DNA of 45,395 nucleotides, taken from positions 1,841 to 47,235 of the forward strand of contig MHEF01000121.1 of NCBI GenBank assembly GCA_001805125.1. Reading direction: 5' to 3'. Within the stretch, counting starts at the first letter, position 1, and each line of letters begins with the position of its first letter. The translations under genes were made by a program, and so were the position numbers. Under the pieces are notes generated by a model, which did not search any database, was not told where the DNA came from, and was given only the letters and a program-made list of their open reading frames with translations. This document shows positions 9,042 to 44,044 of this stretch, one piece after another. The stretch comes from Nitrospirae bacterium RBG_13_39_12 (GTDB lineage Bacteria > Nitrospirota > Thermodesulfovibrionia > Thermodesulfovibrionales > SM23-35).

Positions 9042-9793
9042 CTGATCTCTCCAAGATATATTCTTTGAACCTCTTCGTTCTTGCTGATCTCATCAGGAGA
9101 ACCTTCGGCGATCACCCGGCCTTCGTTCAAAACGGTGATGATATGGCAGAGACGCAGAACGACGTCCATGCTATGCTCGATTAAAATAATTGTCATCTTT
9201 TTTGACAACCTCTCAACGACTTCTAAAATATTGTCCGTCTCTTTCGGACTCACCCCTTGCGTGGGTTCATCCAGGAGAAGGACAGAGGGTTGGGTGCTAA
9301 TGGCCATGCCTATTTCTAAAATCTTTTGATCTCCATAAGAAAGATTGGAGGCCAATTCGTTCATTTTCTCCTTTAACCCAACCAAGTGACAGATCTCCTG
9401 TGTCTTTTGAGAGAGATCAGCCACATGATGAGCAAGGGTCACTGGATTCCATGGCCGCTTTGCCCTCGAGTTCACTCCCACCCAAATACTCTCATAAACG
9501 GTCATCTCTGGAAAGATAAATGTTAATTGAAAGGTTCGACTCAGACCCTTCTGACAGATGATATGGGGAGTGAGATGGGTGATCTCCTCGCCTCTTAAAA
9601 ATATCTTTCCTGATGTCGGCTGCAACTCACCGGTGATGACATTAAAAAGAGTGGTCTTTCCAGCCCCGTTTGGTCCTATGATACCCCGTACCTCCCTCTC
9701 TTTGATAGTATAGGTGACGTCATCAAGAGCTGTTAAACCGCCAAAACGCATCGTCACTGAAACGGTTTCTAAAAGATTGCTGCCAGAGGCCAT
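9038..9793 (-). CDS. ABC transporter ATP-binding protein, LivG-like
   Basis: Walker A GPNGAGKTT, signature LSYGDQK, Walker B LLLDEP, and a LivG-like C-terminal extension. Confidence 0.9.
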   Translation of the reverse strand: MASGSNLLETVSVTMRFGGLTALDDVTYTIKEREVRGIIGPNGAGKTTLFNVITGELQPTSGKIFLRGEEITHLTPHIICQKGLSRTFQLTFIFPEMTVYESIWVGVNSRAKRPWNPVTLAHHVADLSQKTQEICHLVGLKEKMNELASNLSYGDQKILEIGMAISTQPSVLLLDEPTQGVSPKETDNILEVVERLSKKMTIILIEHSMDVVLRLCHIITVLNEGRVIAEGSPDEISKNEEVQRIYLGEIS

Positions 9794-23855: not shown

Positions 23856-24374
23856 TTATTTTGGATTTTCACCCAGATAGGCTTTAATAAAGATATCCAC
23901 TACCTCTTCCACACTGTCTCGGAGTTGGCTCAATATAATTTTCCCTATCGACCCCACTCCACCCGTTGACCAGGTCACTGCATACGTAATTTGTTCTGGA
24001 CCCCGTAGGAGAGAAACCTTTTGTATTAACATCACATCGATGGTATAGGGGTAAATCTCACTTTCAGTTTTTGCCAAATTCACATTAATATTGATGTAAA
24101 GGTATGGCTCTCCCGGCGTCTTTGAACATTCCTCTTTTGTTAATACCTTTATCCCTGCCATCCGAAGCTTAGATTCTGCCTCCATCTGTAGTTGATTTCT
24201 GACGAGCCCTTCCCTTTCAACCTCAGGTGGCAATTGTTCTACGAGTATTCCAACTCCTTTTAGCCCTCGAAGGGTAGCCCGATTGGATCTACCATTGACT
24301 GCAAATATGGGTAAATCCAATGTTAAGATCATGGCGACCACCATCAATAGTATTAACCATTTTTTAAAATTCAT
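23856..24374 (-). CDS. Hypothetical secreted protein
   Basis: 172-aa ORF with a clear signal peptide (MNFKKWLILLMVVAMILTLDLPIFA). I recognise no family. Confidence 0.5.
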   Translation of the reverse strand: MNFKKWLILLMVVAMILTLDLPIFAVNGRSNRATLRGLKGVGILVEQLPPEVEREGLVRNQLQMEAESKLRMAGIKVLTKEECSKTPGEPYLYININVNLAKTESEIYPYTIDVMLIQKVSLLRGPEQITYAVTWSTGGVGSIGKIILSQLRDSVEEVVDIFIKAYLGENPK

Positions 24375-25009: not shown

Positions 25010-26767
25010 ATGAAAGTTCTTCCTACTGAACAATGGGTTAAAAAAGCTGTAATCCTGGCAGGAGGGCAAAATACCCACTTAGCTCCTTTGACCAATTATT
25101 GCCCAACATGGATGTTTCCTGTCCTTAATAAACCTCTTATAGAGTATACCGTAGATTTTTTAAGAAAGAATGGTTTTGAGGAAATAATCATCTCCTTGCC
25201 TGAAGAAGCGAAAATCCCTGACTATTTAAAACAGAATAAGGTTCCAGGGATTAATATTAAATTCCATAAGGAAGATAGACCGAGAGGAACGGCTGGGGCA
25301 CTCAAGGATCTTGAGAATATTTTAGACAAAGAACCCTTCCTTGTTATTGAAGGCAATCTTTTTTCGGAAAGTATAAATTTAAATAAGTTTATTGAGTTTT
25401 ACAAAGAAACAGATTCAATTGCTACTGTTGGAGTATACCGAGAGAATGGTCGTAAGATTGAAGAGAATGTTACAATTAACAACGATAGCATGATTAACAG
25501 TTTCCATATCATTCACTCTTCAGTGGATAGGAGATCGCCATGGAGACCTTCTGGTATATATCTCTTCGATCCAATCATACTAAGATTTATTGACCGAAAG
25601 AATTATAAGGACATCAAGGAACAATTAATACCTGCCTTACAAAGAGAAGGTTTGAATGTCTCTGCGTGTGAAATTGAAGGGTTTCACTCCCTTCTCCGAA
25701 ACATGAACGATTACATCAATATCCATCGAGACCTTCTTTTGAAAAACGGCCATAAATATTTTGATGACAAGGAAGAGATAACAAAAGGGGTGTGGGTCGG
25801 CAAGAATGTGAAAATCTCTCCCAAAGCCTATTTATTAGGTCCGATTTTTATAGGCGATGGTTGTGAGATAAAAGATTGGGCACAAATCATCGGACCAACA
25901 GTCATTGGCAAAAAATGCCTGATATCAGAGGAGGTTGTAATTCGTGAGAGTATTCTATGGGGTGGCATATCTTTATCAAAAAAGTCGAGGATTGAATATT
26001 CAATCATAGGTGAGAGAGCCGATATTCCAGATAATTTTTATAGCAATAATATGATTTTGTTAAACGGATTATCCATTAGAGATGTTAGCCTGATCCCCTC
26101 AGACCAAAGTATAAAAGGAATTATTAACTTATCAGATGTTGTATCCACCATAGGGAGCAGACAGAAGATATATGAAATATCAAAGAGAATAATGGATATC
26201 ATTCTTTCTGCCACTGGCATTATTCTTCTCTTTCCTTTATTATTATTATTTGCTATTGTGATAAAGATCGATTCTCCAGGATCCGTATTTTATATTCAAA
26301 AGCGATGTGGCAGGGAGGGCAAATTGTTTGGTATGATAAAGTTTAGGACGATGGTTGCCAATGCCGAGAAACTCCAAAAAGAACTAATTGCTATTAAAGA
26401 GATTGATGGCCCGATGTTTAAGATATCAAATGACCCAAGAATCACAAGAGTTGGAAGGATATTACGAAATACCAGCCTCGATGAAATCCCTCAGCTATTC
26501 AATGTTCTTAAGGGAGAAATGAGTCTTGTCGGCCCAAGGCCATTGATAATGGATGAGATGCAATTCAGCCCAAGTTGGCGTGATACAAGGCTGAAAGTAA
26601 AACCGGGTATAACAGGATTATGGCAGATACAGGGTAGGAGTGAAGCCCCTTTCCACGACTGGATAAGATATGATGCAGGGTATGTCAAGAACCAGTCCCT
26701 CTGGATGGATATTAAAATACTGCTGAAGACAATAAAAGTTGTTCTAAAAAAATCAGGGGCGTATTGA
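25010..26767 (+). CDS. Fusion protein: sugar-1-phosphate nucleotidyltransferase-like domain plus left-handed beta-helix, fused to a monotopic phosphoglycosyl transferase (bacterial sugar transferase, PglC/WbaP-C type)
   Basis: The N-terminus has an NTP-transferase pattern (AVILAGGQNTHLAPLT ... NKPLIEY) followed by hexapeptide repeats (VGKNVKISPKAYLLGPIFIGDGCEIKDWAQIIGPTVIGKKC). The C-terminal 200 aa has a re-entrant helix (IILSATGIILLFPLLLLFAIVIKIDSPG), KFRTM, and the signature DEIPQLFNVLKGEMSLVGPRP. An AGGAG RBS lies upstream. Confidence 0.85.
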   Translation: MKVLPTEQWVKKAVILAGGQNTHLAPLTNYCPTWMFPVLNKPLIEYTVDFLRKNGFEEIIISLPEEAKIPDYLKQNKVPGINIKFHKEDRPRGTAGALKDLENILDKEPFLVIEGNLFSESINLNKFIEFYKETDSIATVGVYRENGRKIEENVTINNDSMINSFHIIHSSVDRRSPWRPSGIYLFDPIILRFIDRKNYKDIKEQLIPALQREGLNVSACEIEGFHSLLRNMNDYINIHRDLLLKNGHKYFDDKEEITKGVWVGKNVKISPKAYLLGPIFIGDGCEIKDWAQIIGPTVIGKKCLISEEVVIRESILWGGISLSKKSRIEYSIIGERADIPDNFYSNNMILLNGLSIRDVSLIPSDQSIKGIINLSDVVSTIGSRQKIYEISKRIMDIILSATGIILLFPLLLLFAIVIKIDSPGSVFYIQKRCGREGKLFGMIKFRTMVANAEKLQKELIAIKEIDGPMFKISNDPRITRVGRILRNTSLDEIPQLFNVLKGEMSLVGPRPLIMDEMQFSPSWRDTRLKVKPGITGLWQIQGRSEAPFHDWIRYDAGYVKNQSLWMDIKILLKTIKVVLKKSGAY

Positions 26768-27144: not shown

Positions 27145-27930
27145 ATGAACTTCAGAAACATAAATCCCTCATATATATATATCGGGATATTCGTCCTCAT
27201 TATCTCTATTTTATTAAATGGATGCTCAACCATTGGGACTACATCAAAAACGACCGAAGGGGGAGTCTCTCCGGCATCAGATGAGGAACCTAAGGAGGTT
27301 AAGCTCAATGAGTTTATCCTTGGCCCAGGAGATAGGGTTGAGATTATAGTCTATCGCCACGATGACTTAAAAAGAACCGCCCAAATAGATACTTCTGGAA
27401 AGATAGCCTACCCATTGGTTGGAGATATTCAGGCAGGAGGATCAAGTATTTTTCAATTGAGGGATAAAATTCGGGATGGGCTTTCAAAGTATATCATAAA
27501 TCCCGAGGTTACAATTGGTGTTGTATCTGTCCTGAGCCAGAAGGTTGGAGTCCTTGGTGAAGTCAACAATCCTGGGTTATTTACTCTTGATACTTCATTA
27601 ACTGCAGTAGAGGCTGTATCTAAGGCTGGAGGGTTTACCATAAATGCAAAACAGAAAAATGTTCTTCTTATCAGAGGTGGGTTGAAAAAACCTGAGTTAA
27701 TAACTCTTAATATAAATAACTTTTTTAGGGAACAGGATCTAACTCAAAACGTTTCTCTCAAAAATGGAGATATTATCTATGTGCCAGCAACATTTATAGA
27801 AAATGTTGCCAGATTCTTTGACCATTTGTCAAGGATCCTTGCACCTCTTACCTCGATAGAATCTGGAATCTATATAGGCCAACAAATAAAACAGGGAACC
27901 GGCGGAGGAGCATCTGTTCCAGCAAGATAA
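27145..27930 (+). CDS. Polysaccharide export outer-membrane lipoprotein (Wza/OPX family, short form)
   Basis: Lipobox LLNGC. Poly_export motif (FILGPGDRVEIIVY ... IDTSGKIAYPLVGDIQAGGSS) and an SLBB-like segment (VGVLGEVNNPGLFTL ... AVSKAGGFT). At 261 aa it lacks the long C-terminal helix of E. coli Wza. Confidence 0.85.
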   Translation: MNFRNINPSYIYIGIFVLIISILLNGCSTIGTTSKTTEGGVSPASDEEPKEVKLNEFILGPGDRVEIIVYRHDDLKRTAQIDTSGKIAYPLVGDIQAGGSSIFQLRDKIRDGLSKYIINPEVTIGVVSVLSQKVGVLGEVNNPGLFTLDTSLTAVEAVSKAGGFTINAKQKNVLLIRGGLKKPELITLNINNFFREQDLTQNVSLKNGDIIYVPATFIENVARFFDHLSRILAPLTSIESGIYIGQQIKQGTGGGASVPAR

Positions 27931-27961: not shown

Positions 27962-29464
27962 ATGACACTTGTTGAAATGCTTGAGAGAAATGAAAGAGAA
28001 TTCCCCAACAAGATAGCTATCATCTATCGTCATACCGGGATTACATATAGAGAACTGAATGTGACGGTTGACAAGATAGCCAATGCCTTAATAGCCATGG
28101 GGCTTAAAAAGGGGGATAGGGTTGGGCTGATGCTTCCTCGAGTTCCTGAACTTATTGTCAGTTTTCTTTCTATAGCCAAGGCTCAAGGGATTGTTGTACC
28201 CATCAATTTTGAACTTTTAGAAGAGAAAATTAGAACGATACTAATTAATATTTTACCCCGATATCTTATTATCCATGAAAACTTTTTAGACCTTGCCAAA
28301 AGATCACTTCCTTCAGGTCTAAAAATTCCTATCATAGCTGTTGGAGAAAGAATGAATGGAGAGGAATTTTTCTGGGAGGAGATGCTGAAAGGCAAGAGTT
28401 CGCCCCCCCCAGCTTTAGAAGTTAAAGAAAATGATGTGGTTTACCTCAACTATACCACTGGTTCGACAGGGAATCCGAAGGGGGCTATCACTACTCATTC
28501 ACATATATACTGGAATACAGTTGCCTCCATCGATGCCCTCAAAATGACTTCTAATGATGTTCATCTCTGTATGTTTGCCCCCTTTGCGCATCCGCACGAA
28601 ATATTTGCCAGACCCCTCTACCTGGGAGGAACAATGGTTTTGGTTGACAAGATATATCCGAAGTCTATTGCAGAAGCCATTGCTCATCATCAGGTGACCT
28701 GTATGATGGGACTTGCTCCAATGTACGAGAATCTGTTAGAGGTCCTTGAGCACAAAACTTACAATTTTGGTTCTTTAAGGATCCCAGAAAGTGGCGGTAT
28801 GTATACACGGCCAGAACTTATTGAGAGATTCAAAAGGAAGGTGGGTGTGCCAATTCTATCCGTATTGGGAACTACAGAAACAGCAGGTATTGCGATTGCC
28901 AATAGACCAGGTGAGACAATTATTTCTGGTTCTGCGGGAAAACCCTGTAAGTCCTATGAGGTAAAAATTGTTGATGAATATGATATGGAACTTCCAAAAA
29001 ACGAAATTGGAGAGATGATATTCAAAGGGCCTGGAGTGGTTCAGGGATACTATCAGGACCCTATCAATACTCAAAGTTGCTTCAAAAATGGTTGGTATTA
29101 CAGCGGAGATTTAGGAAGAAGAGACGAAGAAAATAACTTCTACTTTATTGAAAGAAAGTCAGGAATGATGAAGGTAGCAGGCCTAAAAGTCTACCCCTTG
29201 GAAATTGAATTGGCATTGCTGGAACATCCAGACATAAAAGAAGTCGCTATCATCTCTGTGAAGGACACACTTAGAGGGGAAATCCCCAAGGCCGTCATCG
29301 TTACAAAAAATGGGGTTGATTTAACCGAGAAAGAGGTTATTGCATTTTGTAGAGATAGATTGCCAAATTATATGGTGCCTCGCATTGTGGAGTTAAGAGA
29401 GGCCCTTCCAAAAATCGGGAGCGGAAAGATTAATAAAAAAGAATTACAGATGGAGAGAATATAA
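27962..29464 (+). CDS. Adenylate-forming enzyme (AMP-dependent synthetase/ligase; DltA/acyl-carrier-loading candidate)
   Basis: 500 aa. Core motifs: YTTGSTGNPKGA (A3), YYSGDLGRRDEENNFYFIERKSGMMKVAGLKVYPLEIE (A7/A8), and GSGKINKKEL (A10). A strong AAGGAGG RBS is present. Confidence 0.9.
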   Translation: MTLVEMLERNEREFPNKIAIIYRHTGITYRELNVTVDKIANALIAMGLKKGDRVGLMLPRVPELIVSFLSIAKAQGIVVPINFELLEEKIRTILINILPRYLIIHENFLDLAKRSLPSGLKIPIIAVGERMNGEEFFWEEMLKGKSSPPPALEVKENDVVYLNYTTGSTGNPKGAITTHSHIYWNTVASIDALKMTSNDVHLCMFAPFAHPHEIFARPLYLGGTMVLVDKIYPKSIAEAIAHHQVTCMMGLAPMYENLLEVLEHKTYNFGSLRIPESGGMYTRPELIERFKRKVGVPILSVLGTTETAGIAIANRPGETIISGSAGKPCKSYEVKIVDEYDMELPKNEIGEMIFKGPGVVQGYYQDPINTQSCFKNGWYYSGDLGRRDEENNFYFIERKSGMMKVAGLKVYPLEIELALLEHPDIKEVAIISVKDTLRGEIPKAVIVTKNGVDLTEKEVIAFCRDRLPNYMVPRIVELREALPKIGSGKINKKELQMERI

Positions 29465-29881: not shown

Positions 29882-31924
29882 ATGGAGATTAGAAAATATT
29901 TTGAAATCATTTGGAAAAGGAAGTGGGTACTGATTTCCAGTTTTTGCATCATTGTTATTCTTGTGGTGATAGCAACTAACGTTTTAACTCCAATTTATGA
30001 GGCAAAAACCAAGGTCCTTATTGAACAATCAAGTGCTCTATCTGCCATTATGAGCAGCCTTAACGTGCCAACGAATCCTTTGCTTACTCCAAATCTTACT
30101 AATATTGCATATGGATACGATACAGAAATCACTCTTGTGAAGATAAGTCCTATTCTCCAAAAACTTATTGCTAACTTGAATCTAAAGGACAGGAAGGGAG
30201 AAACATTAAAACCAGAAAAGGTTCCATTTTCTATAACAAGACTTATTCTCCCCCAACCGTATATAGCTGTGGACCAATATCTAAGCTCAAATATTCTGGA
30301 AATTACAGGAGGTTCTACTAATCCCGCAGAGGCAGCCAAAATATCAAATGAATTAGCTAAATTGTATATAGACAATACTGTGGGTGAGGTAAAAAAAAGT
30401 TTCAGAGCTGCCCGTTTATTCATTGAAAATCAAATGGAGGATGTTAAGAAAAAATATTTTAAGTCTTTATTAGAAAGAAAAAATTTTATGACCGAAGAAT
30501 CAACGGTTGATTTAACAAGGGAGATTTCAGAGCTCCTTGATACTATAACAAAATTAAAGCAGGGTTATAATGACAATGAAGCTACTATAGCTCAGGCCGA
30601 AGAAAGCATCAGTTTGATAGAAAAACAGATTGCAGGGAAAGAGCATATTTCCAGTAATCTAATAAACACGATGGAGTCAAAATTAAATGATTTGTTAATA
30701 AATATCTCAGGCAAGAAGATTGAACTTACCGAAAAACATCCTGATATTGTAATACTTAATAAACAAATTGATACTATAAAAAAGCAATTGGAAGAAAAGA
30801 TGGAAATTGCCTTTAGCGAAAAGGCAGTCTCTATGGCCCCCGTTTACGAAGAATTAATAAGAAACCTGAAGGATGCATACATTAATAAAAAGACCGGAGA
30901 AATAAAAAGAGAATTATTAAAGCAATTTATTGATAAATATCAAGATGAACTAATGAAAATCCCTCCTAAAATCATGAGATCCTCCGCGATAGACGTTTCG
31001 CTCAATGCTAACCAAGATACCTATAAAAATCTTTTAACAAGCCTGAATCAGTTGGGTGTTGCCGAGTCTATCACCCTCGCCAATATCAGATTAGTTGAAC
31101 CTGCAGTAGAACCGGAAAGCGATGCACTCTATTTCCCCAAAAAGAATCTAAGCTATGTTCTCGGAATATTTCTTAGTTTATTCTGTGGGCTGTTTCTGAC
31201 TTTTTTTATAGAATATATAGACAATAAAATAAGAAGCCCTGAGGATATTAAACAATATGGATTTACGTTTTTAGGGTCTATTCCAAAGTTTAAATGGTTT
31301 AAAGGGAAACCTATGGTTTCAAAGTTAAATCCGAACGACCCGATCTATGAAGCCTATCGAAAGATACTTACCAATATTGATTTTGTAACGCTTGATAAGC
31401 CTTATAATAACCTATTAGTTAGCGGTATCAATCCAAAGGAAGGAAGTTCTACCACGGCAATGAACCTTGGAATTATACTTGCCAGTGAGGGGAAGAAAGT
31501 CCTTTTGGTGGATGCAGACCTCAGAAAACCTAACCTTCATCGATTGTTTGGGCTCCCCAATACGAAAGGTTTTATTGATTTATTATTTGGAAATGCAGAA
31601 ATGGAAAAAGTGATTCAGCCATCAAAGATTGATGGTTTAAGCATTATCCCAACAGGTCCAGCAACCCCGGATCCAGGCCTGCTTATCAAATCTAATAAAA
31701 TGCGAGAGGTTATTAGAGGCTTAAAAGGAAAATTTGACATCATTTTATTCCGTTCTGCTCCTCTTTTAATTAGGAACGATGCAGTTTTATTAATGAGAAA
31801 TTTAGATGCTATGATAATCGTTTCCAGGAATGGAGTCACTAACCATCCTTCTATTGCCAGAACTGACGAACTTTTAAAGAATTCAAAGATAACCCCGATA
31901 GGAATCATCCTAAACCGGGTTTAA
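29882..31924 (+). CDS. Polysaccharide co-polymerase (Wzz/PCP-2 type) with a C-terminal BY-kinase-like domain carrying degenerate Walker A and B motifs
   Basis: 680 aa. It has an N-terminal TM plus Wzz-like start (IWKRKWVLISSF), a long coiled-coil periplasmic region, and a second TM (YVLGIFLSLFCGLFLTFFI). The C-terminal domain has Walker A' LLVDADLRKP. Walker A reads GINPKEGSST rather than ..GEGKST, Walker B reads DIILFRSAP rather than D..iDTPP, and there is no C-terminal Tyr cluster. Confidence 0.8.
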   Translation: MEIRKYFEIIWKRKWVLISSFCIIVILVVIATNVLTPIYEAKTKVLIEQSSALSAIMSSLNVPTNPLLTPNLTNIAYGYDTEITLVKISPILQKLIANLNLKDRKGETLKPEKVPFSITRLILPQPYIAVDQYLSSNILEITGGSTNPAEAAKISNELAKLYIDNTVGEVKKSFRAARLFIENQMEDVKKKYFKSLLERKNFMTEESTVDLTREISELLDTITKLKQGYNDNEATIAQAEESISLIEKQIAGKEHISSNLINTMESKLNDLLINISGKKIELTEKHPDIVILNKQIDTIKKQLEEKMEIAFSEKAVSMAPVYEELIRNLKDAYINKKTGEIKRELLKQFIDKYQDELMKIPPKIMRSSAIDVSLNANQDTYKNLLTSLNQLGVAESITLANIRLVEPAVEPESDALYFPKKNLSYVLGIFLSLFCGLFLTFFIEYIDNKIRSPEDIKQYGFTFLGSIPKFKWFKGKPMVSKLNPNDPIYEAYRKILTNIDFVTLDKPYNNLLVSGINPKEGSSTTAMNLGIILASEGKKVLLVDADLRKPNLHRLFGLPNTKGFIDLLFGNAEMEKVIQPSKIDGLSIIPTGPATPDPGLLIKSNKMREVIRGLKGKFDIILFRSAPLLIRNDAVLLMRNLDAMIIVSRNGVTNHPSIARTDELLKNSKITPIGIILNRV

Positions 31925-32139
31925 ATATAGGGATTTTCCAAGATTGTATTGAAATTATCAGGATTTTGGGCAATTATTTCATTTTTTCGAAACCAGGTTG
32001 CCTTTTTTGTTTTTTATCAAGTTATTTTCCTGTCCAAAATACCATTTTTTAAAACCTAATTTTACCAAAAGTGGTATTAAATGATTAAATTACTAATCAG
32101 GCCATAATTATATAGACATTGAAAACTAAATCCCTCCTT

Positions 32140-32463
32140 CCTCCCTTTACCAAAGGGAGGAATCCCCCTCTTTGGCAAACTGATCGTTACCCATAAATGG
32201 GGAGGCTGGACACAAGGGGCTAAGTTATATGTTGCTAACATGACGAAATCATTATTATTCTTTAAGTTTGTCATTCCTGCGGAAGCAGGAATCCAGGTAT
32301 TTCCTATTGGTCATGGATTCCCGTTTTCACGGGAATGACATCTAAATACATTATGCTAAAGCCTCAATTGCCCCAGTTATGCCCCCCTCCTTGTGTCCAG
32401 CAGCCGACTTATGGGACACGTTCAGTTTGGCAAAGAGGGGTTACCTGCCTGCCGGTAGGCAGG
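32140..32463. repeat. Nested-hairpin REP/MITE-like element cluster (R4)
   Basis: Hairpins occur at 32140-32160 (CCTCCCTTT-acc-AAAGGGAGG), 32273-32292 (ATTCCTGC-ggaa-GCAGGAAT), 32317-32336 (ATTCCCG-ttttca-CGGGAAT) and 32444-32463. A long imperfect inverted repeat links 32165-32219 with 32383-32440. 32270-32294 is the exact reverse complement of 11770-11794. Confidence 0.75.
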
Positions 32464-32535
32464 GGGGAGATTTTCTAAAGATTATGTCTACTCGATTATG
32501 GACTCCTTAGTAAATTAACAGGGAGTAATAAAGGT

Positions 32536-33918
32536 ATGAAAGTTTTACTCGTCCAATCACATTTAGGCAGGATGAAGTTTTCCCCTCCTTTATTCCCAAT
32601 TGGGTTGTGTTATATCGCTACTGCTTTAACAAAGCATGATGTTAGGATATTAGATCTTAATATGTGGGAACTTTCTACCGCCTATGAAAAATTAAAAGAA
32701 GAAATTGTGAATTTTAGCCCAAATATTGTTGGAATTTCCATTCGGGATATTGATACAACAAATAGATCAGATATTTTTTACAATTTTAAGACTGTTAAAC
32801 CAACTGCCCAGTTAATAAAAAAAATAAATCCCAACATAAAACTTTTGGTTGGAGGCTCTGGTTTCTCCATATTTGCTCAAAATATTATGGAGCGAATTCC
32901 AGAATTTAATTTTGGTATTCATTTAGAGGGAGAAGAATCTATCCCAGAGCTTTTAGACCATATTGACTTCCCAGAAACTGTTAAGGGTATTTTTATCAGG
33001 AATAATGATTCGACTTATTTTACTGGTTTTAGAGCACTACCTGATTTTAATAATTTACCCATTCCTAAAAGGAACGAGAGTTTAATAAATATTAAACCAT
33101 ACATAGGAGCGATGGATAACAATATAGGGATTCAAAGCAAGCGCGGGTGTATATTAAATTGTGCTTACTGTAGTTATCCCTTTTTAAGTGGTAAGCAATT
33201 GCGCCTTCGTTCACCCGAAATCGTTGTAGATGAAATAGAATACCTTATCAGTTTAGGGGTTAAAAGGTTTACTTTTGTAGATAATATTTTTAATGTTCCA
33301 GTATCACATTCCAAAGAAATTTGTGAGGAGATAATCAAACGAGGGTTAGATGTCGAGTGGAGTGCATGGTTTGAGATAAAACATACAACTGAAGAACTGA
33401 TGCTTCTTGCTAAAAAAGCTGGGTGTAAACATTTTGGTTTTTCACCTGATGGTGCTACCAATAAAACACTTTCTTTTCTCAAAAAAGGCATTACTGAGAA
33501 GGACATCGAAGAAAATTTAAGAATGGTCAGAAGAATAGATGGGATAAAAGCCGGCTATAATTTTTTTTTAATGCTACCGGGAATGAATTTACGAGATTTA
33601 ATAAAAACTTTGATTCTATATTTCAAATTGCCTATTCTCCTGTTTGGCAAAGGAGGAGGAGCTTTATTGGGATGGATACGTATAGAACCTCACACAAAGA
33701 TACATGAGTTCGCTGTTAAAGAGGGCATTCTGAGTCAGGATACCGATTTACTACCAGAAGATGAAAAGGAACTGATAAAACTTTTTTATACTAACCCTAA
33801 ATATCGATATATCGATTTATTTCTTTTATTTTTAGTTAAATTAATGGAAAACATTGTAAAACCATTTGCAAAGTTTGTGATAAAGGGTTTTCCCAGAAGC
33901 AAAGGTAACAGCATATAA
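32536..33918 (+). CDS. B12-binding-domain radical SAM protein (class B)
   Basis: The N-terminus is Rossmann-like and cobalamin-domain-like (MKVLLVQSH...FPIGLCYIATAL...IVGISI). It is followed by the radical SAM cluster motif CILNCAYCSYP (CxxxCxxC). Confidence 0.85.
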   Translation: MKVLLVQSHLGRMKFSPPLFPIGLCYIATALTKHDVRILDLNMWELSTAYEKLKEEIVNFSPNIVGISIRDIDTTNRSDIFYNFKTVKPTAQLIKKINPNIKLLVGGSGFSIFAQNIMERIPEFNFGIHLEGEESIPELLDHIDFPETVKGIFIRNNDSTYFTGFRALPDFNNLPIPKRNESLINIKPYIGAMDNNIGIQSKRGCILNCAYCSYPFLSGKQLRLRSPEIVVDEIEYLISLGVKRFTFVDNIFNVPVSHSKEICEEIIKRGLDVEWSAWFEIKHTTEELMLLAKKAGCKHFGFSPDGATNKTLSFLKKGITEKDIEENLRMVRRIDGIKAGYNFFLMLPGMNLRDLIKTLILYFKLPILLFGKGGGALLGWIRIEPHTKIHEFAVKEGILSQDTDLLPEDEKELIKLFYTNPKYRYIDLFLLFLVKLMENIVKPFAKFVIKGFPRSKGNSI

Positions 33919-33990: not shown

Positions 33991-34986
33991 ATGGTAAATA
34001 ATAAAAATATTTTGGGGGATATTTTTCTTTGGTTTGTTTGGTTCCCCTTTCGTATCTTTATACATCACCTACCTATAAAATTGGTAAATTTAATGGGGCA
34101 ATTAGGCGGCCTTGCTCTGTATGCATTCTCAAGAAAAAAGAGAGCGATAATGACTGAGGAACTTTCTTTTTTATTTAGCCATTCATCATCTTTAAACCAA
34201 AAAGAAATTAAAAAAATGGTCTATCGGGGCCTTCAGATATTTAGTAAAAGACAGATGGAGAATCTCTTTTGGGGGAAAATGAGTCCCCAGCTTATCAATC
34301 GCATGATTACAATCGAGGGAATTGCGCATCTTGAAAAAGCCTTGCAAAATAAAGATGGTGCTATTCTTCTCACTGCCCATTTTGGCTCTCAACAGATTGC
34401 CCCACTCGTGTTAGGTTTTAAAGGATATAAGGTTAATATAATGGCTGGTCCCCCTTTGATAGAAAAACAGACACCAATCCATGGGAAGATATTCAAAAGC
34501 CGCTCGAAAGAATCTAAGAGATTACCAATAAACTTTATTACACTTGATAGGTCTAAGAGACATTTATTTAGAGCACTAAGAAATAATGAGATACTATACA
34601 TTGGGTTTGATGGAAGGGAGGGAGTTAATTGGATTCCAGTAGATTTCTTCAATCATAAAGCCTTTTTTTCACCTGGTCCTATAAAACTGTCACTTAAAAC
34701 AAGAGCACCTATTTTGCCTACATTTATAGTAAGACAGAAGGACGATACACATCGGTTAATTATCGAGCCACCTTTTGAGCTTGAATTAGCAGAGGATGAA
34801 AAAAAAACACTTACCTTGAACACAGCGAAATTTGCTAAAATATTCGAGGAGTATATCTCAAAATATCCGTGTCACTATGCGATGACATTAATGCGTATGA
34901 AAGAATTGATGCAGGAAGGTGCGCTTGAATCAAGTCTTTTTCAAGGACATAAAAGAGAAGTATTAGTGAAAAATATGTTGAAATGA
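33991..34986 (+). CDS. LpxL/HtrB-like (lipid A biosynthesis-type) acyltransferase family protein
   Basis: N-terminal membrane anchor, then the family pattern: AILLTAHFGSQQIAP (compare vil.tpHfGnwEl), LRALRNNEILYIGFDGREG, FFNHKAFFSPGPIKLSLKTRAPILP. The dyad position H-x4-E reads H-F-G-S-Q-Q. Confidence 0.65.
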   Translation: MVNNKNILGDIFLWFVWFPFRIFIHHLPIKLVNLMGQLGGLALYAFSRKKRAIMTEELSFLFSHSSSLNQKEIKKMVYRGLQIFSKRQMENLFWGKMSPQLINRMITIEGIAHLEKALQNKDGAILLTAHFGSQQIAPLVLGFKGYKVNIMAGPPLIEKQTPIHGKIFKSRSKESKRLPINFITLDRSKRHLFRALRNNEILYIGFDGREGVNWIPVDFFNHKAFFSPGPIKLSLKTRAPILPTFIVRQKDDTHRLIIEPPFELELAEDEKKTLTLNTAKFAKIFEEYISKYPCHYAMTLMRMKELMQEGALESSLFQGHKREVLVKNMLK

Positions 34987-35169: not shown

Positions 35170-36357
35170 ATGGCAAAGATTTTGTATATTATAATATCCT
35201 TGTCCCTAGGCGTTTTGGTTTATTGGTTTCTTCCTAAAAGAAGTCGCAGCATATTTCTGCTTGCGGCGAGTCTTTTTTTTATGTCCTTCTTTAGTATAAA
35301 ATATACACTTTATTTTCTGCTTATTGCATTATCTATTTATTTTACAGGTATTTTTATACAGAAAGAGGACAAAAATAAAATACTTTTTCTCAAGCTTGCA
35401 TTATTCTTTCTAATTGGAAATCTCTGCGTTTTTAAGTATATTGATTCATTACTCAATGCTATATTTAGGATTGGTTTTCAATTTCCAGTGATACCAGAGA
35501 CAACATTTTCGAAGATAGCTATCCCTATGGGGATGTCGTATATTATTTTCAGGTTAATACATTATGTTGTAGAGATTTACAGAAAAACCCTGCCTACCCA
35601 TACATTCTGGGACCTTGCATTATTTGTATTCTTTTTCCCCACGTTTTTGGCGGGACCAGTTGATAGATTTCAAAGATTCCAACCACAGATTGCAGAGCAA
35701 AATTCTTTTGATTCTTCAGATATGAATTACGGTTTGTTTCGCATCGTCTCAGGAATGATTAAGAAATTTATTATAGCAGACCACCTGAAACCATTAGTCA
35801 TATCTGTACTTTCATCACCACAGGAATCTTTATGGGCGATTGTAGTGCTTGCAATCTATGGCTTGGCAATACAGATTTATATGGATTTTTCTGGTTATAC
35901 AGACATGGCTGTTGGTGTCGCAAGATTATTTGGATACAAGATAATGGAAAACTTTAACTATCCATATTTTAAAAAGAACATTGCCCTGTTTTGGCGAAAC
36001 TGGCATATTTCTGTTTACAGTTTTATAAGGGACTATTTTTTCTTCCCATTCTTCGGTTATCGCGCTTCCCGAAAAAAGATTTACATTGGTATATTTATAA
36101 CTATGATTGTATTTATGTTATGGCATGAGGCCAGCCTACCTTTTCTATTTTTGGGAATTTATCATGGTTCTGGTTTAGTGTTATGGCAAGGTTTCCAGGA
36201 ATTAAAAGGGAAACATGCAAGCATTAAAAAAATGGTAGATAATAAGTATTTGGATCCCCTTTTAAATTTTTTAACATTTAGTTTTGTGAGTTTCAGTTTT
36301 ATCTTTTTCAGTTTTGACATGAATGCCATAAAAGCTATTTTGCTTAGAATATTCTAA
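35170..36357 (+). CDS. MBOAT-family membrane-bound O-acyltransferase (DltB/AlgI-like)
   Basis: 395-aa polytopic protein. MBOAT hallmarks: SYIIFRLIHYVVE, FWRNWHISVYSFIRDYFFFPF, and MLWHEASLPFLFLGIYHG (conserved His). Confidence 0.9.
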   Translation: MAKILYIIISLSLGVLVYWFLPKRSRSIFLLAASLFFMSFFSIKYTLYFLLIALSIYFTGIFIQKEDKNKILFLKLALFFLIGNLCVFKYIDSLLNAIFRIGFQFPVIPETTFSKIAIPMGMSYIIFRLIHYVVEIYRKTLPTHTFWDLALFVFFFPTFLAGPVDRFQRFQPQIAEQNSFDSSDMNYGLFRIVSGMIKKFIIADHLKPLVISVLSSPQESLWAIVVLAIYGLAIQIYMDFSGYTDMAVGVARLFGYKIMENFNYPYFKKNIALFWRNWHISVYSFIRDYFFFPFFGYRASRKKIYIGIFITMIVFMLWHEASLPFLFLGIYHGSGLVLWQGFQELKGKHASIKKMVDNKYLDPLLNFLTFSFVSFSFIFFSFDMNAIKAILLRIF

Positions 36358-36420: not shown

Positions 36421-36660
36421 ATGAAAGAACAAATTAAAAAATTTATAATTAATAATTTTATGTTTGGTGAAGGTATTCTTAAAGATGATGATCCCTTATT
36501 CGAATCGGGCATAATAGATTCGCTCGGTTTTATTAAATTGCTTGCCTTTATAGAAGAGAAGTTTGAGGTTTGTATAGATATGGGCGAAGTTACCATAGAA
36601 AAATTTAATACTATCAATGAAATGATGAAAACCTTAGAAAATAAATTACCTAAGGTTTAG
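36421..36660 (+). CDS. Acyl/aminoacyl carrier protein (DltC/ACP-like)
   Basis: 79 aa with the phosphopantetheine attachment motif GIIDSLGFIKLLAFIEEKF (D-S-L). It lies directly after the MBOAT gene. Confidence 0.85.
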   Translation: MKEQIKKFIINNFMFGEGILKDDDPLFESGIIDSLGFIKLLAFIEEKFEVCIDMGEVTIEKFNTINEMMKTLENKLPKV

Positions 36661-36737
36661 TAATTTCTACTCTAAAAAGATAATGTTGAGGATCATTATA
36701 GAGAAAATAGTTAGAAAAATACTAAAAAGGAGTACAT

Positions 36738-36857
36738 ATGAAAAATAACAAAAAAACATTTTTTACGGTTATCTTAATCCTTATTTTAATTTTAATTGTT
36801 TACGTATTGTATCTTCTGGGTTACAAGCTGGAAGGTTTCGTATATGAAAAATTTTAA
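36738..36857 (+). CDS. 39-aa single-pass membrane microprotein with C-terminal F-V-Y-E-K-F (DltX-like acyl-shuttle candidate)
   Basis: Below the ORF-track size cut-off and translated by hand: MKNNKKTFFTVILILILILIVYVLYLLGYKLEGFVYEKF*. AAGGAG lies at 36727-36732, 5 nt before ATG 36738. The stop is at 36855-36857, overlapping the next gene's ATG (36844) by 14 nt. Confidence 0.6.
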   Translation: MKNNKKTFFTVILILILILIVYVLYLLGYKLEGFVYEKF

Positions 36858-37875
36858 GCACCTTTTTATGCCTTCATATATTGTTAGACATAGCGGGTTT
36901 AGGGCAGTATATATTGCATTCATTATTATTTTTATATTTATTTTCTCATTGGAACTTACTGATAGGATTCTTTTTAGACCAAAAAGTATTTTTGCCAGAA
37001 GTGTACGCGATTTTGAAAAACAAAAAAGTCAAATACAAATTCTATTCCTTGGTCAATCAGATGTGCAATTTGACATTATCCCTGATGAGTTTAATTACAG
37101 GGCATTTAATTTCTCTGGTAGCGGAGAAACTTTTTTAGAAACATATTATAAATTAAAACACTATATACGTGATATGCATGAGGTAAAAATAGTTGTATTG
37201 GCAGTTACCTTCTCGACTTTTTCATCTTATCGTGCAGACGAAATACAATGGGAATATTTTGTATATAGGTATATAACATATAGTGAGATCTTGGAGTTAT
37301 ACAAGCTGAAGGGACCGATGGTAATAAGAGAAAAGCTTTTGAGCTTTTGTCCTATTGTTAGAAGAATTGAGATGATTGATTTTCTTCGTAATATGAAAAA
37401 GTTACTAACAAATCAGCCTATTGATAAAACAGAAATGTATGATGGGTTTGTAAAGAATGTTGGAAGCAATGTTACTAAGGAAGGAGCGTTAGAAAGGGTA
37501 GAAAGACAATTTAAGGGACAAAATTTATTAGATAATAATTTTTTATTATATTTCGAAAAAATATTGAAATTGTGCGTGGACAATAATATTAAAGTATTTT
37601 TGGTAACATTACCGGTAAGTAATTATTATTTTGAACATTCAAAAAAATACATAAACAAAGATTTACTTTATAAAAAGGTTATAAATAATCCAGTATATGG
37701 CAAATACGTACATAAATATTTGGATCTGTTAGAAATTTATAAAAATGATAATGACCTTTTTTTAAATCAGGACCATTTAAATGATGAAGGTGCCCGGAAA
37801 GTATCAAGGCTTATAGCATCTGAATGGTCTAAGACGATCGAAGATATTATGAATGCTCAATATTTCCTAAAATGA
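36844..37875 (+). CDS. Membrane-anchored DltD/SGNH-like acyl-transfer protein (DUF1574-like)
   Basis: The track start 36796 is a TTG inside the microprotein ORF, so ATG 36844 (MKNFKHLF) is preferred. It has an N-terminal TM (AVYIAFIIIFIFIFSL), a block-I-like ILFLGQSDV (candidate Ser nucleophile), and a block-V-like NQDHLNDEGA (D-x-x-H) near the C-terminus. Confidence 0.5.
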   Translation: MKNFKHLFMPSYIVRHSGFRAVYIAFIIIFIFIFSLELTDRILFRPKSIFARSVRDFEKQKSQIQILFLGQSDVQFDIIPDEFNYRAFNFSGSGETFLETYYKLKHYIRDMHEVKIVVLAVTFSTFSSYRADEIQWEYFVYRYITYSEILELYKLKGPMVIREKLLSFCPIVRRIEMIDFLRNMKKLLTNQPIDKTEMYDGFVKNVGSNVTKEGALERVERQFKGQNLLDNNFLLYFEKILKLCVDNNIKVFLVTLPVSNYYFEHSKKYINKDLLYKKVINNPVYGKYVHKYLDLLEIYKNDNDLFLNQDHLNDEGARKVSRLIASEWSKTIEDIMNAQYFLK

Positions 37876-38984: not shown

Positions 38985-39956
38985 ATGAAGGGGATTATAG
39001 CAAGATTCAAAGCAAATCTATTTTTTGCATTGCCTGTTAATAGATATATAGTCAACATCCTGAAACATAGGCTTTTCAGTGGTCTTTATATTCCTCAAGT
39101 GATACAGCTTGAAGTTACTAATTACTGCAATGCAAAATGCATTTTATGCCCATATACAAAAATTACAAGACCAAAAGGTTATATGCCATGGCACATTTTT
39201 GAGAAGATAATTAACGAATGCTCGCAATTTGAAAAAGGCAGAGGATTAAAATTAATCCTGCATAAAGATGGAGAACCATTGATGGACCCCTTGCTTTTTA
39301 AAAGAATTGATTATATCAAAGAAAAGCTGAAAAAGAGTACAGTCCATTTCAACACTAATGCAATGCTTTTGAATGAAGATAAAGCTATCAATATACTAAA
39401 TTCTCCCCTGGATTCCATTACATTCAGCGTTGACGGCACTTCCAAAGAGACTTATGAAAAGATTAGAGAGGGCCTGAAATATGATGCTGTTGTAAAAAAT
39501 ATAAATAATTTTTTTAATAAGAAAAAAGAATTAAATAAGAAAATTCATATAACTATGCAGATGGTATTGAATAAAGACAATATGCATGAAATTGGCAAAT
39601 ATAAGAAATTGTGGGGCGATAAGGCAGACAGGATTTTTATTAAAAATGCGCATAATTTTTTAGTGCAGAAAACATCATTCCATGGCGGAGTGCTGGGTGA
39701 AAAACAATTAAGCAGGTGTATGCAGACATTTAATCTTATGTTGTTCTACTGGAATGGTGATGTTGCTTTATGCTGTTGGGATTATGATAATTTAGTAGGC
39801 CTTGGGAATATAGAGAAAGACTCATTGTTGGGAATTTATAATAACGATAAGTTTAATAAGGTAAGGAATGCCATGAAAAATAAGAACTGCAAAGATATTG
39901 TACCCTGCAATATTTGCTCTCAGATTTACGGCAAAGATGGTAGACAATGGGCGTAA
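38985..39956 (+). CDS. Radical SAM protein with C-terminal SPASM/twitch-like Cys-rich domain
   Basis: Cluster motif TNYCNAKCILCPY (CxxxCxxC). The C-terminal stretch is CMQTF...WNGDVALCCWDYDNLVGLGNI...CKDIVPCNICSQ. An AAGGAG RBS is present. Confidence 0.85.
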   Translation: MKGIIARFKANLFFALPVNRYIVNILKHRLFSGLYIPQVIQLEVTNYCNAKCILCPYTKITRPKGYMPWHIFEKIINECSQFEKGRGLKLILHKDGEPLMDPLLFKRIDYIKEKLKKSTVHFNTNAMLLNEDKAINILNSPLDSITFSVDGTSKETYEKIREGLKYDAVVKNINNFFNKKKELNKKIHITMQMVLNKDNMHEIGKYKKLWGDKADRIFIKNAHNFLVQKTSFHGGVLGEKQLSRCMQTFNLMLFYWNGDVALCCWDYDNLVGLGNIEKDSLLGIYNNDKFNKVRNAMKNKNCKDIVPCNICSQIYGKDGRQWA

Positions 39957-42063: not shown

Positions 42064-42666
42064 ATGCAGAAAATTAAGAAAGATTTAGAAGAATATATTA
42101 GAGGTAAAAAGTCAGTATTTCTTTTTACCGGGGATAGAGGCTCTACGCTTTTAATGAATATTATTAAAGATATGGGGGTCAGTATAATTTTTATTGATAC
42201 TGCGTATCAATTTAATGAGATTACGGATTATATCAAAAGTTTAGGCAGTAAGGTTGAGATTATTATTAGTAATGCTTCAGTTGATTTTACATCTGGTATG
42301 AGTGAATGCTGTTATCAAAGAAAAACAAGGGTATTAAAAGAATATTTAGATAAGACTAATGCCGAGTGTTTAATAGTTCCATTTATAGATGAGGAAAGAA
42401 ATAATGGAATTGAAGACTCCTATTTAACTGGGATCAACAATCTTAAAATAATAAGACCTATATCAGATTTAACAGAGCAAGATGTCTGGATAAAGATAAA
42501 AGAATACAAACTGCCATTTTCACCTATTTATAACAAAGGCTATAGGTTTGTTGATTGTAAATGCTGTACAACACATCATGGCAGGAAAAAATTCATTGAA
42601 GGGGATAAAAACAGAGAATTAGACAAAGAAACAGAAGAAAAACTTAAATCATTAGGGTATATGTAG
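42064..42666 (+). CDS. PAPS-reductase-family (PP-loop-like) protein with a CC...CxxC cysteine pattern
   Basis: 200 aa. FLFTGDRGSTLL...IIFIDTAYQFNEITDYI follows the family pattern (fSGGkDS ... vvfiDTG..FpET). SECCYQRKTRVLKEYL (compare kCC..RKv.PL) and, about 75 aa later, DCKCC recall the Fe-S motif of APS reductases. There is no ECGLH tail. Confidence 0.6.
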   Translation: MQKIKKDLEEYIRGKKSVFLFTGDRGSTLLMNIIKDMGVSIIFIDTAYQFNEITDYIKSLGSKVEIIISNASVDFTSGMSECCYQRKTRVLKEYLDKTNAECLIVPFIDEERNNGIEDSYLTGINNLKIIRPISDLTEQDVWIKIKEYKLPFSPIYNKGYRFVDCKCCTTHHGRKKFIEGDKNRELDKETEEKLKSLGYM

Positions 42667-42667
42667 G

Positions 42668-44044
42668 ATGGAAAAAGTTATAGTCATCTTATGTGATACA
42701 CTTAGAGCAAAAAGCCTGCACCACTATGGCAATGAGAGAAACACCCTTCCTCAACTTGCTCGTATAATAGAAGAGGATTTTATTGTTTATAAAAGGGCAT
42801 ACGCACCTTCTTCTTGGACAATCCCTTCGCATCTGTCTCTTTTTACCGGATTGTATCCTTCTCAAGTTATGGAAAATAGAACATCATTTAATTTAAACCC
42901 TAATTTTATAACTTTAGCTGATTTATTTAAAGGCTCAGGATACAAAACGTTTGCTTTAATTACTAACGGTTTTTTATCAGATAGATTCGGATATAACAAG
43001 GGATTTGATGGGTTTTTCCAATTGTGGCTGCCAAAGCCGGGTGAAAAGGAAATGCTTTTAGATTTAGGTGGCAGTAACCAATTTAAAAAACTATTTAAGT
43101 TACTTCAACTAATAATTATGGGAGATAACAAAGAAACTATTTTAAAAGGTGCCAGACAGAGGATGTATAGAAGATTCAGAATGATTCCTAAAGATGCTAC
43201 TTACTCTACAAATAGAGCTATGAATTTATTAAAACAGCATATATTAGAAAATAGCGCTAAAAGATTATTTTGTTTTGTAAATCTCATGCAGACACATGAA
43301 AAATATAATCCACCTCCTCTCACAAGAAACAAATTTATAAAACATAATGCTAAATATGAAGATTATCATAAGAGGAAAACATCAGCAGACCATTATGCAG
43401 TTGAGCCTTTCAGTCAAGAGTTTTTAGAATATCTTAAATTGCGATATGAGGAAGAAATATTATACCTTGATATAGTAATTTCAGATTTTATCCAGTTCCT
43501 GAAAAAACATGCCTTATATGATGAAAGCACTATTATAATTACAAGTGACCATGGTGAACAATTTGGAGAAAATGGACGATTTGCACATGGATTTTCAGTT
43601 TATGAGCCTGTAATAAGAATTCCGTTATATATTAAATGGAATGGGAATTCAGAGAACAATAGTAAGGTTGATGATAGATTAGTTATGTTACAGGATTTAT
43701 ACTCAACATTTATAACCTTATTGAATCACTGGCAGCCATATCCAGAGAGTTCTGTTGATTTAACATCTTCATGCGAACGTTCCTGGATATTGTCTCAATT
43801 ACCTGATATGTCCCATAATATTAAAAGTTGTCAGAAAAAGCGGCAGACATTTTCTATAAAAGAGATAGGATTGGAGGAAGACAGTCTTGCTGCCTATGTT
43901 TTTAATGACGGGGTAAAAATTATAGAGGACGGCAGTAAGGTTTTGTGTTACGACTTGAAAAACGACTCTGATGAAAAGAAACCATATCCGGTATCAGTTG
44001 AAAGAATAAAAACATTAGAGAAGATAAGAACTTTAATACAATAG
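42668..44044 (+). CDS. Sulfatase-fold (alkaline-phosphatase superfamily) protein with Thr at the nucleophile position
   Basis: VIVILCDTLRAKSL (metal-ligand Asp), APSSWTIPSHLSLFTGLYP aligned to ..C-x-P-S-R-x-S-L-L-T-G (C to T, R to H), and ITSDHGEQFGENGRFAHG (D-H ... H ligands). It has no signal peptide or TM segment. Confidence 0.75.
   Translation: MEKVIVILCDTLRAKSLHHYGNERNTLPQLARIIEEDFIVYKRAYAPSSWTIPSHLSLFTGLYPSQVMENRTSFNLNPNFITLADLFKGSGYKTFALITNGFLSDRFGYNKGFDGFFQLWLPKPGEKEMLLDLGGSNQFKKLFKLLQLIIMGDNKETILKGARQRMYRRFRMIPKDATYSTNRAMNLLKQHILENSAKRLFCFVNLMQTHEKYNPPPLTRNKFIKHNAKYEDYHKRKTSADHYAVEPFSQEFLEYLKLRYEEEILYLDIVISDFIQFLKKHALYDESTIIITSDHGEQFGENGRFAHGFSVYEPVIRIPLYIKWNGNSENNSKVDDRLVMLQDLYSTFITLLNHWQPYPESSVDLTSSCERSWILSQLPDMSHNIKSCQKKRQTFSIKEIGLEEDSLAAYVFNDGVKIIEDGSKVLCYDLKNDSDEKKPYPVSVERIKTLEKIRTLIQ

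Follow-up and report, generated by a model that had tools for sequence, protein, structure and literature searches.

A conserved 39-residue membrane microprotein as a candidate acyl-shuttle subunit in a Nitrospirae exopolysaccharide cluster

Why does an exopolysaccharide cluster carry an open reading frame (ORF) of only 39 codons between a carrier-protein gene and the gene of a DltD-like SGNH protein, and could its product do there what the microprotein DltX does in Firmicutes? The ORF lies at 36738..36857 on the forward strand of a 45,395-nucleotide stretch of DNA from Nitrospirae bacterium RBG_13_39_12 (GenBank assembly GCA_001805125.1, contig MHEF01000121.1, positions 1,841 to 47,235). The whole stretch is called the window here, and coordinates count from its first letter. 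The Firmicute DltX motif is FXYXXF with the Tyr as acyl acceptor (PMC12148441), and the DltX proteins of L. plantarum and S. thermophilus end in FIYNEF (PMC13653941) and FLYFGF (PMC11035591), respectively. An earlier sequence-only reading of the window had proposed a DltX-type shuttle peptide whose ending, aromatic-x-Y-x-x-F, should fit the Firmicute motif, and it does fit these published forms. Conservation, the motif, a pattern of split and fused motifs among related loci, and the Dlt-like neighbours all support that interpretation. We consider it likely, from sequence and from analogy with known systems, that the microprotein is the free-standing acyl-shuttle subunit of a carrier-dependent MBOAT-SGNH acyltransferase in a Wza/Wzc-type exopolysaccharide cluster.

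The microprotein gene and its conservation

The ORF, its start signal and its C-terminal motif are located as follows.

36727..36732, forward strand: Shine-Dalgarno sequence AAGGAG, followed by the 5-nt spacer TACAT and the ATG at 36738
36738..36857, forward strand: microprotein gene, 39 codons plus stop, translation MKNNKKTFFTVILILILILIVYVLYLLGYKLEGFVYEKF
36837..36854, forward strand: C-terminal hexapeptide F34-V-Y36-E-K-F39 (FxYxxF acyl-shuttle motif), with the Tyr36 codon TAT at 36843-36845

The product starts with a basic stub, MKNNKK, that has three Lys within residues 2-6. Next come a hydrophobic stretch of ~20 residues, presumably a transmembrane (TM) helix that spans roughly residues 8-27 (36759-36818), and a 12-residue tail. 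The positive-inside rule suggests an orientation with the N-terminus inside and the C-terminus outside. FVYEKF directly abuts the stop codon TAA (36855-36857), and the gene shares 14 nt, ATGAAAAATTTTAA, with the next one, whose ATG at 36844 lies inside the TAT-GAA codons of Tyr36-Glu37. The ORF, the AAGGAG at 5 nt, the Lys-rich stub, the helix, the FVYEKF tail and the overlap are thus all as the sequence-only reading had described them. Of the 435 ORFs that reach 25 aa or more in the six frames of the window, the microprotein alone ends in F.Y..F, and such a hexapeptide precedes only 2 of the 3066 stop codons there. Promoter and terminator scans around the ORF gave background-level signals only, and no Rfam family matched the region.

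Homologous loci (numbered with the prefix L) were gathered using the SGNH protein of 36844..37875 as query. Nineteen related loci (L001, L005, L006, L008, L009, L011-L019, L022, L025, L032, L033 and L034) carry an intact homolog of 39-40 codons directly 5′ of a DltD-like gene. In a codon-level comparison that took in 16 copies, dN/dS ranged from 0.04 to 0.22, and 38 of 40 third codon positions were variable versus 17 of 40 second positions. All 16 copies have a GGAG-type Shine-Dalgarno sequence 5-8 nt upstream of the ATG; a translation signal, the lack of which the earlier reading had named as a point against itself, was therefore found at the window copy and at every copy compared. The frame is intact and its length constant at 39-40 codons down to 38% amino-acid identity, and M1, L13, G28, F34, Y36 and F39 are invariant in all 26 family members. 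A profile search recovered 25 database clusters of the microprotein, each exactly 40 aa long and either unnamed or "hypothetical", and phmmer, run exhaustively against 1.84 billion representatives, gave no more than five relatives. Public gene callers had annotated the microprotein as a 40-aa gene with a 14-nt overlap in L032 and L033, two clusters that match that of the window almost gene by gene.

The motif might be conserved merely because it overlaps the start codon of the SGNH gene. This was ruled out: the codon of the invariant Tyr is TAT or TAC across copies, and several loci keep FxYxxF where the microprotein gene does not overlap the next gene, so the overlap does not account for the conservation of the motif.

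The microprotein ORF is a real, conserved gene under purifying selection, and the conservation that the earlier reading had predicted for syntenic loci is borne out. The same conservation excludes that the stretch between the carrier and SGNH genes is non-coding or open by chance, an explanation that we regard as already refuted and to which we assign practically no probability. The ORF is indeed short and AT-rich, it was not in the supplied ORF track, and the public gene collection has no entry for the window's own peptide. Set against this are a frame that stays open at constant length among divergent copies, dN/dS far below 1, a Shine-Dalgarno sequence that is always present, 25 database clusters of a single length, the lack of an Rfam match, and a motif confined to one ORF of the window.

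Duplicated units give a further view of the same gene. In one clade (L006, L008, L009, L011 and L034), the order is MBOAT, carrier, remnant, DltD-1, methyltransferase, fatty-acyl-AMP-ligase (FAAL)-like gene, microprotein and DltD-2. An intact microprotein gene (..FVYEEF) precedes DltD-2. The copy at the site syntenic with the window has lost its start and helix; only tail fragments are left, for example WKPLKFVLEEF and WKPFKFISETF, in which the Tyr is changed to Leu or Ser. L007, L010 and L020 also carry the remnant, and their contigs stop before the second site. An intact copy beside a decayed syntenic one indicates that one functional microprotein is maintained while the redundant one decays. 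Remnants were located at L006:3619-3730, L008:2027-2121, L009:5886-5984, L020:4470-4565 and L034:5333-5420, with the intact copy 3-5 kb 3′ of the remnant, before the second DltD-like paralog. Separately, a second tandem copy of the peptide gene occurs at L013:1592-1687, L016:1007-1102 and L034:~9587-9682, 5′ of a further DltD-like paralog; it has a GTG start, has no basic N-terminal stub and encodes 31 aa, VTFLLTLLILVVLYLLFFLGGEPLKFIYEEF.

Partner proteins and the free or fused motif

Three genes flank the microprotein gene, and the order MBOAT, carrier, peptide, SGNH protein is the same in the window and in related loci.

35170..36357, forward strand: short DltB-like MBOAT, 395 aa (Pfam MBOAT, 1.6e-15)
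36421..36660, forward strand: stand-alone phosphopantetheine carrier, 79 aa (PP-binding, 1.1e-6)
36844..37875, forward strand: DltD-like membrane-anchored SGNH protein, 343 aa, with an N-terminal TM helix (AlphaFold2 (AF2) and Foldseek)

The MBOAT matches the DltB family TIGR04091 at 4.2e-49 over positions 10-377 of 380, with 167.8 bits against a cut-off of 375, and its only sequence relatives in the PDB are DltB proteins (6BUG and 8JEM, ~3e-27). The catalytic His336 of DltB has its aligned counterpart in His319 (36124-36126), and the WH at 278-279 aligns to the His289 region. Judged by these matches, it is DltB-like in form and not an equivalog. The carrier has its predicted attachment site at Ser34 (DSLG, 36520-36522). 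Its NCBIfam matches, OlsHI-ACP (5e-13) and DltC (8e-10; 39 bits against a cut-off of 68), are both below cut-off, and its PDB matches are the PltL peptidyl carrier protein (5.5e-7) and DltC (1.1e-6), so it resembles DltC or a type II peptidyl carrier protein.

No Pfam or NCBIfam family, DltD included, was matched by the SGNH protein. Among 5.8 billion proteins it has just 53 homologs, all without a name and one of them from a Nitrospirae metagenome-assembled genome. Ser72 (GQSD, 37057-37059) and His311 (DHLN, 37774-37776) are invariant in the homologs. The AF2 model has a pLDDT (predicted local distance difference test) of 90.2 and an N-terminal helix at residues 11-47. In a Foldseek search with this model, the 12 best matches were all DltD structures (E 9e-7 to 6e-4), followed by generic SGNH esterases and PatB. 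The 343-aa protein is DltD-like by its predicted fold.

The MBOAT of the window ends in ...AILLRIF, without FxYxxF, as the sequence-only reading had stated, and this end sets it outside the PatA-type MBOATs with a fused motif. Among the related loci, MBOATs fall into two lengths. All 17 loci with a short MBOAT (395-399 aa where complete) have the carrier, and the microprotein is present wherever the contig extends far enough. All nine long MBOATs (474-569 aa; L002, L003, L004, L023, L024, L026, L027, L029 and L031) end in F[IL]YFQF and have neither carrier nor microprotein; they come from Omnitrophota, Falkowbacteria, Desulfococcus and other contigs, and distant SGNH homologs (26-33% identity) lie directly 3′ of the MBOAT gene. 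The short MBOATs stop where the long ones start an extension of 74-92 aa that holds two hydrophobic segments and the motif. The same length difference has been described between DltB and other bacterial MBOATs (PMC12148441). An hhalign comparison of the microprotein family with the fused tails gave E=0.001 over LG, 5-6 residues and F[IV]Y..F, that is, over the last helix and the motif. With the exception of one fragment taken up below, the motif comes in one of two forms, as the end of a long MBOAT or as a gene of its own, never both and never neither. The earlier argument, that an MBOAT without the motif needs a stand-alone shuttle peptide, fits these loci.

This pattern also bears on the possibility that the microprotein, although conserved as a membrane subunit, takes no part in acyl-Tyr chemistry and is either a scaffold for the MBOAT and the SGNH protein or the product of an upstream ORF that drives translation of the SGNH gene. 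The 14-nt overlap (ATGA...TAA) is compatible with translational coupling, the helix and L27-G28 are conserved and not the tail alone, and the TM helix of DltX has been reported to contact DltD as well (PMC13653941). We nevertheless consider such a role improbable. What is invariant in the tail is precisely the set of three FxYxxF positions defined chemically in DltX and PatA, the motif persists where the genes do not overlap, and the Tyr is lost in some of the decayed copies. Moreover, every related long MBOAT has the motif at its own end and the short ones do not, which would leave their system with no acceptor Tyr if the peptide were absent.

Ligase, cargo and the proposed relay

What acyl group might be carried? 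A candidate for loading the carrier lies further upstream in the same cluster.

27962..29464, forward strand: ANL-family adenylating enzyme, 500 aa, probable carrier loader (AMP-binding, 2.3e-77)

Its best NCBIfam match is the long-chain-fatty-acid-CoA ligase PRK06187 (1.1e-113, below cut-off), and its best PDB matches are feruloyl- and fatty-acyl-CoA synthetases (5e-61), with no DltA among the best 60. DltA, the partner ligase of a DltX, was thus not found within the locus by the best matches in either collection. L032 and L033 keep the ligase gene in their versions of the cluster, and in the sister clade a FAAL-like gene lies directly 5′ of the peptide-DltD-2 pair. Because the ligase is of the acyl-CoA-synthetase type and not a DltA, the locus is not a D-alanylation operon in the usual sense, and its cargo, to judge by these matches, is probably not D-alanine.

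The locus might instead be an ordinary but divergent dlt operon. On that explanation, the microprotein would be a true DltX ortholog, the cargo would be D-alanine, DltA would be encoded elsewhere, and only the host lineage would be new. For each of the four proteins of the module, the nearest characterised relative is indeed a Dlt protein, other genes separate the ANL gene from that of the MBOAT, and the sequence in view is the window, which leaves room for a DltA elsewhere in the genome. We judge it unlikely, if slightly less so than a subunit without acyl-Tyr chemistry. The cluster has a single ANL enzyme, one of the acyl-CoA-synthetase type, and at least 60 ANL enzymes in the PDB outscore any DltA; the FAAL-like gene of the sister clade directly precedes a peptide-DltD pair; the NCBIfam equivalog cut-offs are widely missed (168 versus 375 bits for DltB, 39 versus 68 for DltC); the gene order is B-C-X-D and not X-A-B-C-D; and the setting is a Wza/Wzc exopolysaccharide cluster.

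If the microprotein is instead an acyl-shuttle subunit for another cargo, the following relay can be proposed. The ANL ligase of the locus would activate a carboxylic acid and load it onto Ser34 of the 79-aa carrier. The DltB-like MBOAT, using His319, would take the acyl group through the membrane to Tyr36 in the exposed FVYEKF tail. The tail would then hand it to Ser72 of the DltD-like SGNH protein, which would esterify an extracytoplasmic acceptor hydroxyl, probably on the polysaccharide of this cluster. Our inference of covalent acyl intermediates on Tyr and Ser, of the topology, and of the identity of cargo and acceptor draws on the biochemistry of DltX and PatA.

Several observations weigh against this relay or against the kinship with DltX on which it draws. 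Some concern the peptide. The earlier reading had called for a DltX profile or motif scan; the motif is there, and the profile match to the window peptide is not. The window peptide gave no match to Pfam DltX (PF12459) at E<=10 and no NCBIfam DltX match. Sub-threshold matches were found for 17 of its 26 relatives, the best of which (P0057) reached 24.5 bits (E=2e-5, profile positions 13-43 of 43), under the gathering threshold of 25 bits, so the microprotein stands formally outside the Pfam family. In favour of the kinship, controls showed that the score depends on both motif and helix: a mutant FIAQEA tail scored 12.3 bits, an AIYQEA tail gave no match, and a scrambled helix scored 15.5 bits. 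None of six fused MBOAT tails tested matched Pfam DltX, which places the microprotein family nearer to DltX than the fused tails are. PDB sequence searches with the peptide and with the family profile returned chance TM matches only, and an attempt to retrieve DltX with an approximate bait (the published FIYNEF end joined to a Bacillus-type DltX sequence) found nothing.

Other points against the relay concern the partners. Tyr345, which is among the key active-site residues of DltB (PMC11035591), aligns to Leu328 of the MBOAT (36124-36180, residues 319-333); a difference in cargo or in the mode of peptide binding could account for it. The acid residue of the SGNH protein is not strictly conserved, and position 308 is Asn in the window. 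The ANL ligase is 7 kb from the MBOAT and is linked to the carrier by co-occurrence only. The 17-versus-9 association of short and long MBOATs with the free and fused motif (naive Fisher p=3e-7) may be a single evolutionary event, as the split loci all belong to one SGNH clade (at least 40% identity) and the fused ones form the outgroup. Finally, the 1.9-kb fragment L028 (1-1951) holds a 401-aa MBOAT that ends in KAFGIGSL, followed by a distant DltD-like gene; neither a fused FxYxxF nor a carrier nor a recognisable microprotein was found within the fragment, which is possibly an exception to the rule or an assembly artefact.

The surroundings of the module are those of an exopolysaccharide cluster. 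Besides the genes given above, it contains the following.

25010-26767, forward strand: NTP-transferase/Bac_transf priming enzyme
27145-27930, forward strand: Wza-like exporter
29882-31924, forward strand: Wzz/GNVR/kinase protein, Wzc-like
32536..33918, forward strand: B12-binding radical SAM enzyme, just 5′ of the acylation genes (Pfam)
33991..34986, forward strand: LpxL-like (Lip_A_acyltrans) acyltransferase (Pfam, 3e-28)

The Pfam matches place the module in a Wza/Wzc-type exopolysaccharide locus, in line with the Gram-negative-style locus of the earlier reading. The left 24 kb of the window hold unrelated metabolic and transport genes, and 3′ of the SGNH gene lie genes for a family 4 glycosyltransferase, a radical SAM/SPASM enzyme, a protein similar to glycoside hydrolase family 5, a phosphoadenosine-phosphosulfate (PAPS)-reductase-like protein and a sulfatase.

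The B12-binding radical SAM enzyme has NCBIfam matches below cut-off that include a lipid-biosynthesis B12/radical SAM family, it is kept in L001, L005, L032 and L033, and its substrate could be the acyl chain. L033 has a second gene of this kind between MBOAT and carrier. The SPASM-type radical SAM enzyme of the window lies at 38985-39956, and both radical SAM enzymes are kept in L032 and L033. The LpxL-like gene is also found in L032 (11055-12026) and L033 (12290-13132), and its product may be a second consumer of the acyl carrier; the carrier might then serve both a cytoplasmic and a periplasmic transferase. The PAPS-reductase-like and sulfatase-family genes at the cluster's distal end (42064-44044; a sulfatase also in L033) hint at sulfation or phospho-modification of the same polymer.

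Two further observations concern the edges and gaps of the cluster. A 172-aa ORF at 23856-24374 on the reverse strand, without a Pfam match, lies between a RelA/SpoT gene and the start of the cluster. The 611-nt gap between the Wzc-like and B12-binding radical SAM genes (31925-32535) contains nested inverted repeats: a pair of 37-nt arms (32165-32201 and 32404-32440) encloses a pair of 27-nt arms (32269-32295 and 32314-32340). The gap resembles an insertion of the miniature inverted-repeat transposable element (MITE) or repetitive extragenic palindrome (REP) type.

Comparison with known systems

The principle itself is not new, as the Dlt-type mechanism is already known. MBOAT/SGNH pathways other than Dlt are said to lack both the carrier and a DltX-like microprotein (2025, PMC12148441), and searches of the literature available to us turned up no relevant account of DltX-, DltB- or DltD-like systems beyond dlt operons. 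On these two grounds, a split shuttle of the Dlt type with a non-DltA ligase in an exopolysaccharide cluster of an uncultured, Nitrospirae-like lineage appears to be new. That it is the first Dlt-type split relay outside teichoic-acid D-alanylation, in which an exopolysaccharide or other envelope glycan of a diderm bacterium would be esterified with a non-alanyl acid (fatty, aryl or other) supplied by a FadD- or FAAL-type ligase, we put forward tentatively, at somewhat under an even chance.

If that holds, it would suggest a rule: a carrier-protein donor goes with a free shuttle peptide and an acyl-CoA donor with a fused one. If the proposed relay works, the acyl-Tyr shuttle would be more widespread than has been described. 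Split and fused versions inside one SGNH family allow one to ask why DltX is a separate peptide. The locus also points to an uncharacterised, possibly lipophilic, modification of exopolysaccharide in an environmental bacterium. For annotation, the microprotein would be another functionally essential gene below the usual length limit.

Three known systems invite comparison. AlmEFG of Vibrio cholerae, which adds glycine to lipid A, consists of a ligase similar to DltA, a carrier similar to DltC and a transferase similar to LpxL. It is not known to have an MBOAT, an SGNH protein or a shuttle peptide. The likeness lies in the stand-alone carrier, ANL ligase and LpxL-family acyltransferase, which co-occur in the window cluster as well.

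The fused MBOATs of the PatA type are the second system. Both they and the window have an invariant F-x-Y-x-x-F after a TM helix and a Gly (LLG or LFG, 5-6 residues, F[IV]Y), and both have an SGNH partner downstream; distant homologs of the window SGNH protein even pair with MBOATs that end in FIYFQF. PatA has been grouped with other acyl-CoA-dependent bacterial MBOATs encoded beside SGNH proteins (PMC12148441). The differences are that helix and motif form a separate gene in the window, that its MBOAT is 74-92 residues shorter, and that the carrier is present in loci of the window type and absent from the fused systems examined.

The third is the Dlt system. Like DltX of the Firmicute dlt operon (Schultz, Snow and Walker 2023, as summarised in PMC12148441), the microprotein is a presumably single-pass protein of ~40-49 aa with a basic N-terminus and FxYxxF at its very C-terminal end, encoded beside a short DltB-type MBOAT, a stand-alone carrier and a membrane-anchored SGNH protein of the DltD type. 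It differs from DltX in that its gene lies between the carrier and SGNH genes, whereas DltX is at the head of its operon, and in that it is accompanied by an acyl-CoA-synthetase- or FAAL-type ligase in place of DltA. The SGNH partner has only 11-14% identity to DltD and no match to the Pfam DltD family. The setting differs as well: here it is a Wza/Wzc exopolysaccharide locus of a Nitrospirae-like, presumably diderm bacterium, not a teichoic-acid system.

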